Part shown: positions 1 through 62,606 of the stretch, piece by piece
Layout: every line of letters starts with the position of its first letter
Position numbering within the stretch: position 1 is the first letter of the stretch
Source of the DNA: Candidatus Galloscillospira stercoripullorum
GTDB taxonomy: Bacteria > Bacillota > Clostridia > Oscillospirales > Oscillospiraceae
Reading direction: 5' to 3'
Assembly (NCBI GenBank): GCA_018715695.1
Contig: DVLB01000027.1
Span: 6,728 to 70,727 of the forward strand
Length of the DNA: 64,000 nucleotides
Translations under genes and position numbers: made by a program
Notes under the pieces: generated by a model
Seen by the model: only the letters and a program-made list of their open reading frames with translations
What the model was told of the DNA's origin: nothing
Database searches by the model: none

Positions 1-842
1 GGGAGGAGGACACCCTTACCCTGGTGGCCACCACCTATCCGGTCTATCTCTTTACCACCGCCGTCACCCAGGGGGCCGAAGGGGTGGAGGTAAAGCTGCT
101 GGTCAACCAGCAGACCTCCTGCCTCCATGACTATACCCTTACCGTGGGGGACATGAAGGCCATCGAGGGGGCCGACGTGATCGTCATGAACGGCGCGGGG
201 CTGGAGGATTTCCTCTCCGACGCCTTGGCAGGCTCCCAGGCTGCGGTCATCGACTGCTCCGCGGGGGTGGAGATGTTGGAGGAGAGCGGCCATGAGGGCC
301 ACGACCATGACACCACCTGGGACCCCCATATCTGGATGGATCCGGAGCGGGCGGCGCAGATGACGGAGAACCTGGCCGAGGGCCTGGCCGCGGCGGACGA
401 GGCAAACGCCGCGCTTTACCGGGAAAACGGTACGACCACGGCGGAGCAGCTGCGCGCGTGCGCCGAGGAATGCCGCGCTATGGTGGAGCGGTCGGAGGTA
501 ACCTGGTCCCTCATCACCTTCCACAACGGCTTTGGCTACTTTGCCGACGCTTTTGGCCTGACTATCCTCAAGGCCATCGAGGAGGAGGAGGGAGCGGAGG
601 CCAGCGCCCAGGAGATCAGGGAGATTGTCGCCCTCATCGGGGAGTATGACCTCCCCGCCATCTTCACTGAGGTCAACGGTTCCGACTCCACCGCCCAGGC
701 CATCGCCCGGGAGACGGGCTGCGGCGTGGCGCAGCTGGACATGATCATGAGCGGCGACGGAAGCGGCATCCAGCCCTATCTGGACGCCATGACCCAAAAC
801 GTACAGACTCTGGTGGACGCTTTGGGTGAAGGAAAGGTCTGA
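1..842 (+). CDS. Metal (Zn/Mn-type) ABC transporter substrate-binding protein, ZnuA/TroA family; N-terminus lies left of the window
   Basis: The frame of ORF 24..842 stays open back to position 1. It has a His/Asp-rich loop (HEGHDHD) and is followed by matching ATPase and permease genes. Confidence 0.8.
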   Translation, partial: EEDTLTLVATTYPVYLFTTAVTQGAEGVEVKLLVNQQTSCLHDYTLTVGDMKAIEGADVIVMNGAGLEDFLSDALAGSQAAVIDCSAGVEMLEESGHEGHDHDTTWDPHIWMDPERAAQMTENLAEGLAAADEANAALYRENGTTTAEQLRACAEECRAMVERSEVTWSLITFHNGFGYFADAFGLTILKAIEEEEGAEASAQEIREIVALIGEYDLPAIFTEVNGSDSTAQAIARETGCGVAQLDMIMSGDGSGIQPYLDAMTQNVQTLVDALGEGKV

Positions 843-51785: not shown

Positions 51786-52014
51786 GGAACATGCTCCTTC
51801 CTGTTCTTCCGTCCTACTTCTAGGGTGGACGGGTATGGGCGGGACGGCTCTGCACGGCAGCTTTTCCTTCCCGGCCTGCTCTGTCCTTTCAGTATACATC
51901 CGATTCATCCGGCAGGACAACCCCATTTCCTCACCACCCGGCAAAGGAGGGATATACAAAAGCGGGGCCGCTGCGCTGGGCTCGCGCGGGGGCCCCAGGA
52001 GCTGGGCGAGGTAA

Positions 52015-52052
52015 AAGGGGCCGCTGCCTTTTGCCCGTGTCCCATAAGGAAA
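52015..52052. other. attL: host hairpin arm (52015-52028) joined to the left terminal repeat of the element
   Basis: AAGGGGCCGCTGCC is the exact reverse complement of 61206-61219. The following TTTTGCCCGTGTCCCATAAGGAAA is an imperfect inverted repeat of the right end. Confidence 0.75.
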
Positions 52053-52414: not shown

Positions 52415-52449
52415 CGGAACACTTGTACGCTCAAGTGTCCGGGCTTTTT
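52415..52449. terminator. Bidirectional terminator downstream of the XRE gene
   Basis: CGGAACACTTG-TACGCT-CAAGTGTCCG with AAAAAGC on the left and GGCTTTTT on the right. Confidence 0.7.
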
Positions 52450-52759
52450 ATGTCTTTTCATTCATGGCTTTCATAATTTCTAATACTGCCATTTTTTGCC
52501 GAGACGTTAGATTTGCCCATTGACGGAATACTGCATCCAGTTCCGGGGTCAGCTCCACCATTTCCCCCTCTGCAAAGAACTGTGAAAGTGTTATTCCAAA
52601 CCCTTTGCAAATTGCTTCTAAAGTGGAGACCGAAGGAATGGTATTGCGCTTATAGATATTTGCTATTGTGGCATGGGACAAGTTGCTGTTTTTTGCCAGA
52701 CGATAGGTTGTCCATCCTTGACTTTCCAACAGCTGGTGTAGCCTTTCCAGAACATCCAT
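52448..52759 (-). CDS. XRE-family helix-turn-helix transcriptional regulator (element repressor candidate)
   Basis: WTTYRLAKNSNLSHATIANIYKRNTIPSVSTLEAICKGFGITLSQFF is a classic XRE HTH. It is divergent from the cargo operon. Confidence 0.88.
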   Translation of the reverse strand: MDVLERLHQLLESQGWTTYRLAKNSNLSHATIANIYKRNTIPSVSTLEAICKGFGITLSQFFAEGEMVELTPELDAVFRQWANLTSRQKMAVLEIMKAMNEKT

Positions 52760-52905
52760 ACTTTCAACACCATCCTTTTGTAGCTATTTTATCGTTAAGC
52801 TTGATGGTATTATATGAAAGTATTGTAACTATATTATTGTTATGTTAGAATATAATTCGAGCAGCACAGCGAGAGTGCGAATGAAAGCTTGAAAGGACTG
52901 ATATT
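52760..52905. promoter_or_regulatory. A+T-rich divergent promoter/operator region
   Basis: Plus strand: TTGTAA, a 17-nt spacer, then TAGAAT at about 52823-52851. ATTGTWA half-sites are repeated (ATTGTAAC, ATTGTTAT). Confidence 0.5.
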
Positions 52906-53505
52906 ATGAGTAACCAAAGCGGCGGCTGGGATACCGCCATTGAGACCCAGAACTACACCCCCAGCGGAGGGGCGGCCCCGCAAAAGGGCGCAAGTATCTT
53001 GGTTGACCAGAGCGAGAGCATTGTGTCCACCATCGGCAGCAACTATTTGCAAAATTTCCTTTCCGGCGGCACGGTGTCGAAGGGCGTAGGCGTCCTGACC
53101 CAGAGGCGATTTTACTACAAGGGCAGGAATTTCAGCGGTTCGGGTAAAGATATGAAAGTAACCACTGAGGAAGGGGTCGTATCTATTGAGGATATTACCT
53201 TCAGCAATTTTTCTTACACAAGAAACATTGGTGCCTTGGTTGTAGGCTTACTGCTGGCTGTTGTAGGTGCTTTTTGTACTCTTTTTTTAGGCGGCTACGG
53301 CAGCATCGGCGGACTTGGACTGTTAGGAGTTGCTGCTTTCCTGTTGGTCAATTTTTTTGTCAGTCGAAAATCTCTTTTTATCGTTTCCTTCCCCGGCGGC
53401 AGTTTTGGTTTTGACATTCGTTATTACCCCATTTCCGACATTCGGGACTTCCAGCGGCAGCTTCACCTATTAAAAGACCACCGCAAGGAGGACGGGAACC
53501 TATGA
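52906..53505 (+). CDS. Membrane protein, paralog 1 (PH-like beta domain interrupted by a TM hairpin)
   Basis: GVLTQRRFYYKGR...EDITF, then two TM helices, then LFIVSFPGGSFGFDIRYYPISDIRDFQRQLHLL. A purine-rich stretch (AAAGGA) lies 8 nt upstream of the ATG. Confidence 0.75.
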   Translation: MSNQSGGWDTAIETQNYTPSGGAAPQKGASILVDQSESIVSTIGSNYLQNFLSGGTVSKGVGVLTQRRFYYKGRNFSGSGKDMKVTTEEGVVSIEDITFSNFSYTRNIGALVVGLLLAVVGAFCTLFLGGYGSIGGLGLLGVAAFLLVNFFVSRKSLFIVSFPGGSFGFDIRYYPISDIRDFQRQLHLLKDHRKEDGNL

Positions 53506-54266
53506 GGGAACAGTACCCCTTTTTCCGGGAGGAGGACGAGCGCACCCGGGCGGTCATCGGCGCGGACGCTGCGGAAGCGGATCTGGGCGGAGAATATCAA
53601 AAACCCTACGCTATTCTTACCCAGAAGCGGCTCTACTGTAAGAACGAAGCAGGAAATTTTATTACACAGTCTGCTGACCTGCGGGGAGTGGGCAAAAGTT
53701 TTCCACCTGAGCTAACACAATGGTTTTGGGCAGAAGTAGTTTGTATGGTATTGCTCGTTTGTATGGTCATCTTCTATCATTTTGCTCCGTGGGGGCATAA
53801 CAATTTGAATGATTATTATAGTGCAGTCGGCTCTCTCGCTCAAATGCCTGCATCTGCTTATTTTGACCTGCTTGTGTCTGTTCTTTTGTGCCTCGAATGT
53901 GTTATCGCCTATATATTTATTTTTCAGAAAAGTTTTACAGCAGCTCATCGGCTGGTGTCGGTAGCTATAATAACAGCTCTGGCGTATAGCATTTTTTTAT
54001 GCAGTAAAAGACTTCTTGACCATTCCCTTACTGGTTGGATAGGGGTTAGTTTTGATGATGTTTTTTTACCGCTTATGTCCCTCGTAGCGATTATATCTTT
54101 TGTGTTGTCTGTTATAAATAGTTGGCATAGCAAAAGAAATGTTACCTTTCAAATTACCCACAACGCCGGCGCCTTTTCCTTTAACCCCAGACTGTATTCC
54201 TCTGCCGAGCTGAAACACTTTGCAGCCCAGGTTAAGACCCTAAAAGCAGGTGACGCAAATGGGTAA
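53502..54266 (+). CDS. Membrane protein, paralog 2 (same split architecture, larger TM block)
   Basis: ATGA overlap with paralog 1. YAILTQKRLYCKNEAG, then about 5 TM helices, then VTFQITHNAGAFSFNPRLYSSAELKHFAAQVKTL. Confidence 0.75.
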   Translation: MREQYPFFREEDERTRAVIGADAAEADLGGEYQKPYAILTQKRLYCKNEAGNFITQSADLRGVGKSFPPELTQWFWAEVVCMVLLVCMVIFYHFAPWGHNNLNDYYSAVGSLAQMPASAYFDLLVSVLLCLECVIAYIFIFQKSFTAAHRLVSVAIITALAYSIFLCSKRLLDHSLTGWIGVSFDDVFLPLMSLVAIISFVLSVINSWHSKRNVTFQITHNAGAFSFNPRLYSSAELKHFAAQVKTLKAGDANG

Positions 54267-54798
54267 TAACCCCGGTTTTCTGCTCGGCGGTGCCTCTTGC
54301 TCCGCTGTCCTTACCGCCGAAACCGTCACCCTCAGCGGGAACTATTACCGCTATGACATTCACAAACGGCGCAAGGTGTCCGGGACTGTCACGGTGGACT
54401 TGCTCAATGTGCTTCGGGTGGGGCTTACCAAAACCTATTCCCGCCTAATGCTGGCCGTCCCAATGTGTTTCGGTTTCGCCGCTTTAGGCATCAAGGCCAT
54501 TCCCTCTGTCGAGGTAAAAAAGACCCTTTTGGAAATTCCAGATGTTTGGAGCTTCTCCCCTGGCGTTACATTCTGGAGCCTGCCCCACCAGGATTTCCTG
54601 TGGAAGCTGTGCGCCGTGCTGTGCCTGCTCACCATCCCCCTGTACTGGTTGAGCTACCGCAACGATTTGGAGGTCAACACCACCCAGGGCCGCTATCTGC
54701 TGCCCCAGAAAGGAATGGACGCGGCACAGATCGCCAGCTTCCAGCGAGAGTTTACGCAAGCAAAAATAGCTCGACAGAAGCAGAGCAAGCGTATATAA
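54250..54798 (+). CDS. Membrane protein, paralog 3 (same split architecture)
   Basis: 17-nt overlap with paralog 2. AVLTAETVTLSGNYYRY, then TM helices, then LEVNTTQGRYLLPQKGMDAAQIASFQREFTQ. Confidence 0.7.
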   Translation: MTQMGNNPGFLLGGASCSAVLTAETVTLSGNYYRYDIHKRRKVSGTVTVDLLNVLRVGLTKTYSRLMLAVPMCFGFAALGIKAIPSVEVKKTLLEIPDVWSFSPGVTFWSLPHQDFLWKLCAVLCLLTIPLYWLSYRNDLEVNTTQGRYLLPQKGMDAAQIASFQREFTQAKIARQKQSKRI

Positions 54799-54807
54799 TT
54801 CAAAAAG

Positions 54808-54843
54808 GCGGACGGTCAAAGGGCCGTCCGCCACTTGTTTTTG
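54808..54843 (+). terminator. Terminator after the three-gene membrane cassette
   Basis: GGCGGACGG-N8-CCGTCCGCC followed by ACTTGTTTTT. Confidence 0.7.
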
Positions 54844-55925: not shown

Positions 55926-55961
55926 CGGCTGGTGTTCAAAAGATGACACCAGCCGCTTTTA
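55926..55961 (+). terminator. Terminator after the helical-protein gene
   Basis: CGGCTGGTGT-N10-ACACCAGCCG followed by CTTTT. Confidence 0.65.
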
Positions 55962-56541: not shown

Positions 56542-57336
56542 TTGTTAATAAAGGAGATGAATACTATTAAAACTTTAATTGCTTTCTTTGCTGCGCTTGC
56601 ATCTCCGCTGATCAGTCAGTGGACCAAGTGTGGCCAAGCCATTGAGGACCGGGACCCCCTGGGGGCTGTGTTTCATTTCCTCCTGGTGGTCCTTTATATC
56701 GGTGGGCTGAGCGCCGCTGCCTGCGGGCTTGTGGCTCTGGTCTGCGAGTTCTGGTTTTATCTGATTATCCCCATCCTTATCGTCTGGCTTATCCTGTATT
56801 ATGCCGGGAAGAAGCCACAGACCCCGCCTCCCCCGCCTCCACCTCCCCCGCCTCCGGGGATTGAGGAAGTGCGTGCCCGGGCGGAGCGGGCTTATCCGCT
56901 CATGCAGCAGGCAGTTTATCTCCTGTTTACTGACCTGTGCCGCTACCTGCCCGGCCTTGTGTCCCCCTTTTCCCTGTCGGCGGTGACAGCCCCGGTGAAT
57001 TTTGACATTACCGCCAGCCTCGTCACAAGGTTTCACTTTGTACTCTCCAAAGGCCAGTGCAGCGCACCCGTCAGTGATGTAAAGGATATCCTGGACAACA
57101 TTATCTTCCAGCGTCTCCGTGTCCAGGACCTGCCCATCTCTATTCCGGCTATTTACACTGCGGCGGACGGCAGCACCTGGCCCGGGTTGGTTGTGGACGG
57201 TGTCTTTGACTTGGGCAATCAGTACCGGGTGGATTTGGTCATCACCAACGAGGCCGAGGTGGCCGCCCTCCGGGCCAAGGGCCTATCCTGGTCCGAGGAC
57301 GACGAGGCCGCCGACCCCCAGGACCCGGACCTTTAA
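56542..57336 (+). CDS. Membrane protein with a 12-residue polyproline tract (hypothetical)
   Basis: Three N-terminal TM helices, PPPPPPPPPPPP, a soluble C-terminal domain and an acidic tail. The start is ambiguous (TTG 56542 or ATG 56557). Confidence 0.65.
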   Translation: MLIKEMNTIKTLIAFFAALASPLISQWTKCGQAIEDRDPLGAVFHFLLVVLYIGGLSAAACGLVALVCEFWFYLIIPILIVWLILYYAGKKPQTPPPPPPPPPPPGIEEVRARAERAYPLMQQAVYLLFTDLCRYLPGLVSPFSLSAVTAPVNFDITASLVTRFHFVLSKGQCSAPVSDVKDILDNIIFQRLRVQDLPISIPAIYTAADGSTWPGLVVDGVFDLGNQYRVDLVITNEAEVAALRAKGLSWSEDDEAADPQDPDL

Positions 57337-57341
57337 TCGTC

Positions 57342-58058
57342 ATGCTGATTGGATATGAGTATAACGCCTACCGGCTGGGTGTGGCGCTGGGGGTCCACTG
57401 GACCCCTGGCCCCACGGCCCCGCCCCATTGGCTGGTCGTTGGTCCAAGCGGAACGGGGAAAACGGTGTTTTCTGGCCAGCTTGCAGCCCGCATGGTGCTG
57501 CGGGAAAATGCCCGTCTGTGGATAGTCAACTACAAGGACGATGATTTTTTCCAATTTCTCCAAGAGGTACAGGGGCGGTATTACCGATTCCGGGACGCGG
57601 CCAACGGCATACGGGATTTTTATACCGTCCTGGAGAACAGGCTGGGTGGAGACCCGGACCGCTCCCTATGCCTGCTGTGGGTGGACGAGCTGGCAGCTAT
57701 GGTAACGGGCCTGGACAAGAAGGAGGGGGAACTTGCGAAGTCCGCTGTGGCCTCCATCCTCCAAACCGGCCGCTCCCTCAACTGTCAGCTGCTGGTCAGC
57801 GTCCAGCGGGCGGACAGCGCTTACTTCAACAACGGAGCGAGAGAGAATTTTGGGAATGTGGTGTTCCTGGGTCCCAATATCACAAAGGAGGCAGCGGGGA
57901 TGTTTGGGATAGACCGGGCAGCTCTGCCCTCTGTGACCGGGCGGGCAGGATACTACATCGTCAACGGCAACAGCGAAGCAATCCGCCCCATCCAGTGCCC
58001 CATCATCAAGGACACCGCCAAGCTGAAAGAGGCCCTTTCGTTGGGGTTGACGAGGTGA
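57342..58058 (+). CDS. Short FtsK/SpoIIIE-family DNA-translocase-like ATPase
   Basis: Walker A GPSGTGKT, Walker B LLWVDELA, and TGRSLNCQLLVSVQRAD, which matches the FtsK QRP-type motif. Confidence 0.8.
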   Translation: MLIGYEYNAYRLGVALGVHWTPGPTAPPHWLVVGPSGTGKTVFSGQLAARMVLRENARLWIVNYKDDDFFQFLQEVQGRYYRFRDAANGIRDFYTVLENRLGGDPDRSLCLLWVDELAAMVTGLDKKEGELAKSAVASILQTGRSLNCQLLVSVQRADSAYFNNGARENFGNVVFLGPNITKEAAGMFGIDRAALPSVTGRAGYYIVNGNSEAIRPIQCPIIKDTAKLKEALSLGLTR

Positions 58059-61181: not shown

Positions 61182-61219
61182 CTTCTTTATGGGACATGAC
61201 CCTTTGGCAGCGGCCCCTT
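61182..61219. other. attR: right terminal repeat of the element joined to a host hairpin arm (61206-61219)
   Basis: The reverse complement of 61182-61205, AAAGGGTCATGTCCCATAAAGAAG, pairs with the left end. GGCAGCGGCCCCTT is the exact complement of 52015-52028. Confidence 0.75.
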
Positions 61220-61235
61220 GTGGTATTGGGGAAGA

Positions 61236-62606
<1,371 letters not shown>

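Follow-up and report, generated by a model that had tools for sequence, protein, structure and literature searches.

Three adjacent membrane proteins with a putative split PH-like domain and hypervariable membrane segments on a mobile element of a gut Clostridia bacterium

A stretch of 64,000 nucleotides from Candidatus Galloscillospira stercoripullorum (Oscillospiraceae; GenBank assembly GCA_018715695.1, contig DVLB01000027.1, positions 6,728 to 70,727 of the forward strand), referred to below as the window, was analysed. It carries a mobile element in which three small consecutive genes, P1, P2 and P3, encode predicted membrane proteins, each with two soluble halves separated by transmembrane (TM) helices, and stand next to a divergent gene for an XRE-family helix–turn–helix (HTH) regulator (Table 1).

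The P1–P2–P3 unit

The three open reading frames (ORFs) and the ATGA at 53502-53505, in which the P1 stop and the P2 start overlap, had been described in an earlier note made from the sequence without database searches, and are present in the ORF list. The 17-nt overlap of P2 and P3 given in the same description was shortened. It supposes that P3 opens at GTG 54250, a codon without a ribosome-binding site; ATG 54259 is more likely to be the start, because it is preceded at a distance of five bases by an AGGTGA Shine–Dalgarno sequence and yields 179 aa, the length of the closest P3 homologues (more distant homologues are shorter), and the overlap then amounts to 8 nt (ATGGGTAA).

The genes are taken to form a transcription unit of their own on the basis of the divergent XRE gene, a promoter-like site in the 146 bp XRE/P1 intergenic region (a consensus match only, the functional role of which is putative), a hairpin after P3 that is terminator-like on both strands and a separately promoted downstream gene, P4. 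The unit had earlier been called the first operon of the element, which is not simply so, since a terminator-like hairpin closes it and the gene that comes next has a separate promoter-like site.

Table 1. Coordinates of the P1–P2–P3 unit and associated features in the window
Feature	Position	Strand	Description
Host element	~52.05-61.18 kb		GC below flanking chromosome
XRE-family HTH regulator	52448-52759	-	Divergent to P1–P2–P3; Pfam HTH_26 and HTH_3 matches
Promoter-like site	52823-52851	+	TTGTAA, 17 nt spacer, TAGAAT, TG extension; consensus scan
P1	52906-53505	+	199 aa; ORF list
P1, N-half	aa ~34-107		PH-like; preceded by disordered N-terminus
P1, TM hairpin	aa ~108-152 (nt ~53227-53361)		
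P1, C-half	aa 153-199		Two strands and helix
Hypervariable island 1	53195-53374	+	P1 TM hairpin; from nucleotide identity to L024
P2	53502-54266	+	254 aa; start overlaps P1 stop
P2, N-half	aa 1-70		Near-invariant
P2, core	aa ~71-210		Four TM segments
P2, C-half	aa 211-254		
Hypervariable island 2	53683-54152	+	P2 membrane core; no blastn similarity to L001
P3	54259-54798	+	179 aa from ATG 54259; ORF alternatively opens at GTG 54250
P3, N-half	aa 1-61		
P3, membrane part	aa 62-131		TM1, conserved ~30-aa outer loop, TM2
P3, C-half	aa 132-179		
Terminator-like hairpin	54807-54832	+	Directly after P3; GC-rich 11-pair stem, 9 GC pairs, then T-run

Kinship and predicted fold

The paralogy of P1 and P2 is, at the sequence level, far beyond chance. 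BLASTP gave two collinear high-scoring segment pairs (E values of 4e-5 and 8e-5), and the family profiles were aligned by hhalign with a probability of 98% (E 1e-13). After removal of the TM insert ~100 columns across both halves were aligned, with E values of 1.6e-14 and 5e-16, and the hidden Markov models of the two families each matched the other family on the N- and C-segments. P3 had no detectable similarity to P1 or P2 in BLASTP, and its comparison with them at the level of family profiles (hhalign) was not significant (E ~0.002-0.01, probability 3-14%). The link emerged only with a wider P1 superfamily profile, which was built from distant P1 relatives obtained in an exhaustive search and from which the TM insert had been spliced out; P3 was then aligned over 93 columns in both halves with a probability of 94% (E 1.4e-7). 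On this profile evidence P1, P2 and P3 are all homologous, with P3 as the divergent member.

The proposal of three paralogues with one shared architecture was thus upheld, and the motifs that had been quoted for their N- and C-segments coincide with the columns of highest conservation in the alignment of each family. P1, P2, P3 and P4 gave no family match in scans of Pfam, NCBIfam, PADLOC and PHROGs, and no enzymatic motif was found in P1–P3 by these family-library scans, in agreement with what had been read from the sequence; the three are neither unrelated to one another nor matched to a characterised family. A search of PDB sequences with the profiles returned zinc-ribbon or TM noise only.

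Monomer models of P1 and P3 were built with AlphaFold2 on the family alignments (pLDDT 73 for P1, the N-terminus of which is disordered, and 80.7 for P3). In both, five strands lead into two TM helices, after which come two further strands and a long C-terminal helix. Apart from the membrane hairpin inserted between strands 5 and 6, this is the strand and helix order of a pleckstrin-homology (PH) domain, and seven strands plus a C-terminal amphipathic helix, the hallmark of the bacterial PH-like (PHb) superfamily, are present in both predicted structures. A Foldseek search of the PDB with the P1 model, which like that of P3 still contained the TM insert, had as its top match 3dcx_A, a bacterial PH domain of the DUF1696 family (probability 0.94, E 0.03). 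About half of the next 25 matches were PH domains (Brag2, Exo84, GRK2, Trio, LARG, NET1), with a TM-score of 0.58 on the target for that of Exo84. The Exo84 PH domain was also the match of highest probability for P3 (0.69, E 0.68). Nothing significant was found in a viral structure library. From these models a PH-like fold of the split soluble halves is well supported but not proven, and the two halves of each protein are plausibly one bacterial PH-like domain interrupted by TM helices. The earlier suggestion of such a split domain is made plausible by the order of elements and the Foldseek matches; a sequence match to bPH_2 or YdbS/YdbT, the type it had named, was not obtained.

Hydropathy analysis gave two TM segments in P1, four in P2 and two in P3, and in all three proteins the TM segments are bordered by K/R residues towards the soluble domain. 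Placement of both soluble halves on the same side requires an even number of TM segments. Because the number inserted after strand 5 is even, the models strongly support a cytoplasmic location of both halves, in which they would be able to re-form one domain beneath the membrane. The N-terminal zinc ribbons of homologues are consistent with a cytoplasmic location.

In most families of bacterial PH domains the protein is held in the membrane by TM helices and its PH domain faces the cytoplasm; one family is found in phage lysogeny modules (PMC2817789). Bacterial PH domains (PHb; bPH_1 to bPH_6; 3dcx; PMC2817789) resemble the trio in their predicted seven strands and C-terminal helix, their membrane anchoring and their predicted intracellular location; their TM helices, however, precede the domain, whereas those of the trio are inserted between strands 5 and 6, and no bPH model of Pfam matches the trio. 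YdbS/YdbT-type pairs (DdE/DdF of enterocin DD14, LnqC/D of lacticin Q and Orf7/8 of aureocin A53) likewise consist of neighbouring Firmicutes genes that are paralogous and encode TM-anchored PH-like proteins, are sometimes carried on mobile DNA and are thought to act jointly at the membrane (PMC8657885). The trio shares their tandem arrangement but not the uninterrupted PH domain behind an N-terminal TM hairpin: YdbS is built as TM–TM–PH and YdbT from three such units, in contrast to the split domain of the trio, and no sequence similarity was found. In addition, YdbS/YdbT-type pairs stand in bacteriocin clusters together with peptide genes and often ABC-transporter genes, while the trio has neither: no small cationic intergenic ORF that could encode a leaderless bacteriocin was found, and no transporter in the element.

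The P1 family comprised 160 clusters at 90% identity, in which the soluble halves are near-invariant and the TM hairpin is variable, and many relatives have added N-terminal zinc ribbons. The P3 family comprised 142 clusters with a mean column identity of 72%, TM helices and the ~30-aa inter-TM loop included. A word-seeded search gave 34 clusters for P2, in which residues 1–60 are almost invariant, the C-terminal 44 residues are moderately conserved and the membrane core is unalignable and variable in length. An exhaustive profile search extended the P1 superfamily to 973 clusters at 50% identity. Among 56 sampled distant members, 40 have SHOCT at the C-terminus and about half have zinc ribbons, and no Pfam model covers the core that these 56 share; P1, P2 and P3 of the window have neither zinc ribbon nor SHOCT. 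A 'double zinc ribbon + SHOCT' architecture was noted, without explanation, in the SHOCT paper (PMC3581485). The distant P1 superfamily members appear to be these proteins: the architecture equals theirs, around the same unannotated core, which has never been described as a domain. The hosts were Oscillospiraceae (Flavonifractor, Vermiculatibacterium, Flintibacter), Lachnospiraceae (Catonella) and other Eubacteriales.

Variable membrane segments and portability

The window was compared with two sister elements, L001 (in a Flavonifractor genome) and L024 (from a gut metagenome). Identity to these was 97% for XRE, 96-97% for P3, 94-96% for the FtsK-like protein and 91-95% for the rolling-circle replication (RCR) protein Rep. 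Against this background nucleotide identity to L001 was 93.6% up to 53682 and 96.4% from 54153 onward, with no blastn similarity in between. A 60-nt identity profile against L024 fell to 28-55% in two islands, one over the P1 hairpin (53195-53374) and one over the P2 core (53675-54154), and was mostly 70-100% outside them; for the P1 island alone the values were 38-55%, against 88-100% in the flank upstream of it and 70-88% in that downstream. The proteins follow the same pattern. P2 of the window, L001 and L024 shared 87-90% of the first 60 residues, 15-22% of the core and 66-82% of the last 44 residues; pairwise identities of P1 were 89%, 64% and 64%, with the differences concentrated in the TM hairpin. 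On the sequence evidence this variation is segment replacement via recombination, bordered by the conserved PH halves, and not gradual drift.

A diversity-generating retroelement was rejected as its source: the element contains no reverse transcriptase or template repeat, and whole segments are replaced rather than points mutated in a targeted manner. Most P2 variants retain about four hydrophobic segments. Long P2 variants of 480–545 aa were encountered at four loci (L002, 10576-12024; L003, 10624-12243; L004, 3561-4997; L018, 1604-3241) and have a coiled-coil-like insert of 250–300 aa between TM1 and TM2, which, provided that the PH halves are cytoplasmic, would be exposed on the predicted outer face.

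The host element encodes a small TM protein with a proline run, an FtsK/TcpA-like ATPase, a rolling-circle Rep (PF23343, with a weak RepSA match) and a large serine recombinase with DUF4368; no type IV secretion system (T4SS) genes were found in it. Integrative mobilisable elements with an RCR-type relaxase and a TcpA-type coupling protein are a known class (PMC5704250), which the composition of the element fits; it also resembles actinomycete integrative elements. All complete trios with enough flank (the window, L001, L018, L024, L072 and L073) lie in elements with an RCR Rep and an FtsK-like ATPase, always at the same end. In L072, from Flintibacter, the backbone is the same and a tyrosine integrase replaces the serine recombinase.

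A reverse survey started from 48 metagenomic loci with relatives of Rep, 20 of which had at least 6 kb of upstream sequence. P1, P2 and P3 were absent from 19 of these 20, L024 being the only positive, and the loci without the trio include elements with a 90% identical recombinase. Other cargo, often zinc-ribbon, TM or surface proteins, is found in that place, and an XRE match in only one of them (L036, weak, 31% identity). An unrelated tyrosine-integrase element (L020–L023, 5012-8483) contains a P1–P3 pair without P2 downstream of a divergent XRE homologue (46% identical). The operon under that homologue opens with a 702-aa zinc-ribbon/FecR-domain membrane protein, followed by the P1 and P3 homologues, and the element additionally has a GmrSD-like gene. 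GC content is 0.42-0.55 from XRE to P4, 0.57-0.60 in the element backbone and 0.64 in the host.

It is strongly supported that XRE and P1–P2–P3 are portable cargo with its own regulator and not core transfer apparatus, because XRE co-occurs with the trio on different backbones, the GC content is lower and 19 of the 20 Rep-related loci lack the trio. XRE is probably the regulator of the trio module rather than the master repressor of the element, since it travels with the trio. The earlier note had named absence of the cassette from most homologous elements as an argument against its reading, and this was found in part, namely in the Rep-related elements.

Two further arrangements of the relatives were seen. 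Lone P3 homologues (L074, 9001-9531; L075, 384-914) adjoin a large serine recombinase or a chromosomal junction and are probably remnants of a decayed module. In L014 (9205-11172; also L015 and L016) a zinc-ribbon P1 and a P3 homologue lie amid very large CarboxypepD_reg-type surface proteins; before the pair come a secreted-looking protein of 221 aa and an ORF of 33 aa, and no mobility genes were called within ~10 kb on either side.

Possible function and rival explanations

Bacterial PH domains form rings via edge-strand pairing, and Xu et al. proposed that they cap membrane complexes (PMC2817789). Because of this ring formation and of the translational coupling of the three genes, P1, P2 and P3 are likely to co-assemble, and would do so through their PH halves into a sub-membrane hetero-oligomer, the TM inserts of which would form a membrane-embedded bundle. 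P3 and the PH halves would then be the constant scaffold. The membrane and outer-facing part of P1 and P2 is the candidate specificity determinant, since these membrane parts are swapped between near-identical elements and the long P2 variants gain an outer segment. Such a module might recognise or withstand a membrane-acting agent, be it a membrane-active peptide, a bacteriocin or an incoming DNA-transfer or injection machinery; the swapped TM cores would give allelic specificity and the linked XRE would govern expression. In the preferred interpretation the trio may be a PH-mediated hetero-oligomer with a variable membrane/outer face that sets specificity, acting as an accessory protective module of the immunity or exclusion type for the element or its host; to this functional part a rough probability of 0.35 was assigned.

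Entry-exclusion proteins exist as highly divergent alleles in sister elements and thereby define specificity groups; allelic hypervariability of this kind was found in the P1 hairpin and the P2 core. To our knowledge, no known exclusion protein has a PH-like domain. The exclusion proteins of conjugative elements and prophages (such as TraS, Eex and TrbK) are, like the trio, small inner-membrane accessory proteins of mobile elements (PMC5704250); they differ in having no homology to it, and the element of the trio has no T4SS of its own.

Several observations weigh against the immunity or exclusion interpretation. With respect to the fold, all Foldseek matches of P1 and P3 have E values of at least 0.001 and the root-mean-square deviation is large (~10 Å for P1), and no Pfam bPH model (bPH_1 to bPH_6, bPH_2 included) was matched at E values up to 10, even by the TM-spliced domains. 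With respect to context, no bacteriocin-like small ORF, ABC transporter or T4SS gene adjoins the trio, and relatives were absent from phage and plasmid collections (tblastn with P1) and from IMG/VR (pattern scans with P1 and P3). A phage origin was dropped in view of these last searches. The only PADLOC hit was a 2TM effector model for P2 (E 0.11), and PHROGs gave nothing. P1-type genes also occur alone in ordinary non-mobile chromosomal contexts, so that their ancestral role may be housekeeping, and the mosaic pattern might have arisen by recombination of diverged alleles, with no selection for specificity involved.

In a bolder reading, of low probability, the trio would be a mobile-element specificity system of a kind not recognised before: P3 and the PH halves of P1 and P2 would form a constant split-PH ring, membrane/outer cassettes would be interchangeable with the PH halves as recombination handles, and the cassettes would define exclusion or immunity groups in gut Clostridia. 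If true, these would be groups among competing elements or against membrane-acting agents.

It is also possible, at low probability, that the trio is a general envelope-stress or sub-membrane scaffold without allelic specificity, comparable with sigma-W-regulated bacterial PH proteins and SHOCT-linked membrane proteins, and that the TM variability results from relaxed constraint plus recombination. The P1 superfamily is indeed large, often chromosomal and fused to zinc ribbons and SHOCT, for which a role in anchoring or oligomerising proteins on the inner leaflet has been proposed, and YozO is reported to be sigma-W-regulated and stress-induced (PMC2817789). Relaxed constraint, however, cannot yield a sharp intragenic drop from ~95% to random-level nucleotide identity, and neither the P2-containing three-gene form on mobile elements nor the gain of a large outer segment in the long P2 variants fits a general scaffold well.

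Two further roles are less probable still. In the first the trio would be a dedicated carrier of a small peptide: a leaderless peptide in the cytoplasm would be captured by a PH ring and moved through the membrane by the TM bundle, and self-immunity might be conferred as well. DdE/DdF and the YdbS/YdbT homologues LnqC/D and Orf7/8 are tandem TM-anchored PH proteins that are needed in the handling of leaderless bacteriocins, and are the only ones studied experimentally (PMC8657885); they have in common with the trio the tandem paralogues, the coupling, the Firmicutes host, carriage on mobile DNA and a likeness at fold level. Against a carrier stand the missing peptide gene (no candidate was found in the intergenic regions or nearby) and ABC transporter, the lack of a sequence match to bPH_2, the split domain in place of the TM–TM–PH order of YdbS, and the hypervariable TM cores, which would demand a matching diversity of peptides that was not seen in the loci examined.

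In the second, rated equally unpromising, the trio would take part in DNA transfer or mobilisation, either like the Spd proteins or as an adaptor of the FtsK/TcpA-type ATPase to the mating pore of a helper, with variable TM parts adapted to different helpers. The Spd proteins of actinomycete integrative and conjugative elements are, like the trio, several small membrane proteins near an FtsK-like translocase, an RCR-type Rep and an integrase, and the constant company of Rep and the FtsK-like ATPase at all complete trios with enough flank speaks for such a role; integrative mobilisable elements are known to carry a few pore-reshaping or exclusion proteins (PMC5704250). No similarity to the Spd family or to T4SS proteins was detected in the Pfam and NCBIfam scans, however, and the host belongs to the gut Clostridia and not to the mycelial actinomycetes. 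The trio has its own terminator-like hairpin and lower GC content, elements and loci that have neither Rep nor FtsK can contain the P1–P3 pair too, and most related elements lack the trio, including those with a 90% identical recombinase. The part in transfer apparatus was set aside after the Rep-based survey, in which the trio was found at 1 of 20 loci; the same result speaks against a core role like that of the Spd proteins, to which the trio had earlier been likened. Least likely of all is an abortive-infection or toxic pore, in which a cytoplasmic signal sensed by the PH domain would lead to depolarisation of the membrane by the TM bundle, with XRE keeping the unit silent: the pairing of a membrane-spanning part with a cytoplasmic sensing domain is established among defence effectors and the cargo-like, repressor-linked placement would suit one, but the 2TM effector model is all that PADLOC returned, no linked sensor or signal-generating enzyme was found, hypervariable TM segments are atypical of pore effectors and single chromosomal genes related to P1 are widespread.

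The fold class and the concept of membrane-anchored bacterial PH proteins are already known. What is new is an unannotated family with TM helices inside the domain and with domain-bounded hypervariable membrane cassettes on a mobile element. A sizeable protein family without a database model and with an unusual domain topology has thereby been defined, and the earlier unexplained 'zinc ribbon ... SHOCT' membrane proteins are brought together with it. The domain-bounded replacement of the core provides a testable handle on function. If the cores are specificity cassettes, they bear on the competition of small integrative elements in gut Firmicutes or on protection of the host; if they have no such role, a clean annotation and a new bacterial PH-like family are still gained.

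Neighbouring genes and element ends

P4 (54835-55902) encodes a 355-aa soluble helix-rich protein with no family match. Its promoter-like site is at 54771-54799 and a terminator-like hairpin follows it at 55926-55955. In the sister elements L024 and L018/19 its place is taken by XRE-type HTH genes, of which some include a TM segment, and the position of P4 may for this reason be a regulator slot.

The FtsK/TcpA-like ATPase (57342-58058) has only 238 aa and no TM region. It is preceded, at a gap of 5 nt, by the TM protein of 264 aa (56542-57336), which has a run of 11 prolines. The pair resembles a translocase whose membrane and motor portions are encoded separately.

The flanks of the element (51997-52051 and 61183-61294) are inverted copies of the 3' end of an enolase gene with its downstream hairpin. 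The copy on the left lies on the + strand and lacks 57 nt internally; that on the right is the real end of the eno gene on the - strand. Inverted enolase ends are odd for a simple insertion by a serine recombinase and may mark an attachment site or a past inversion.

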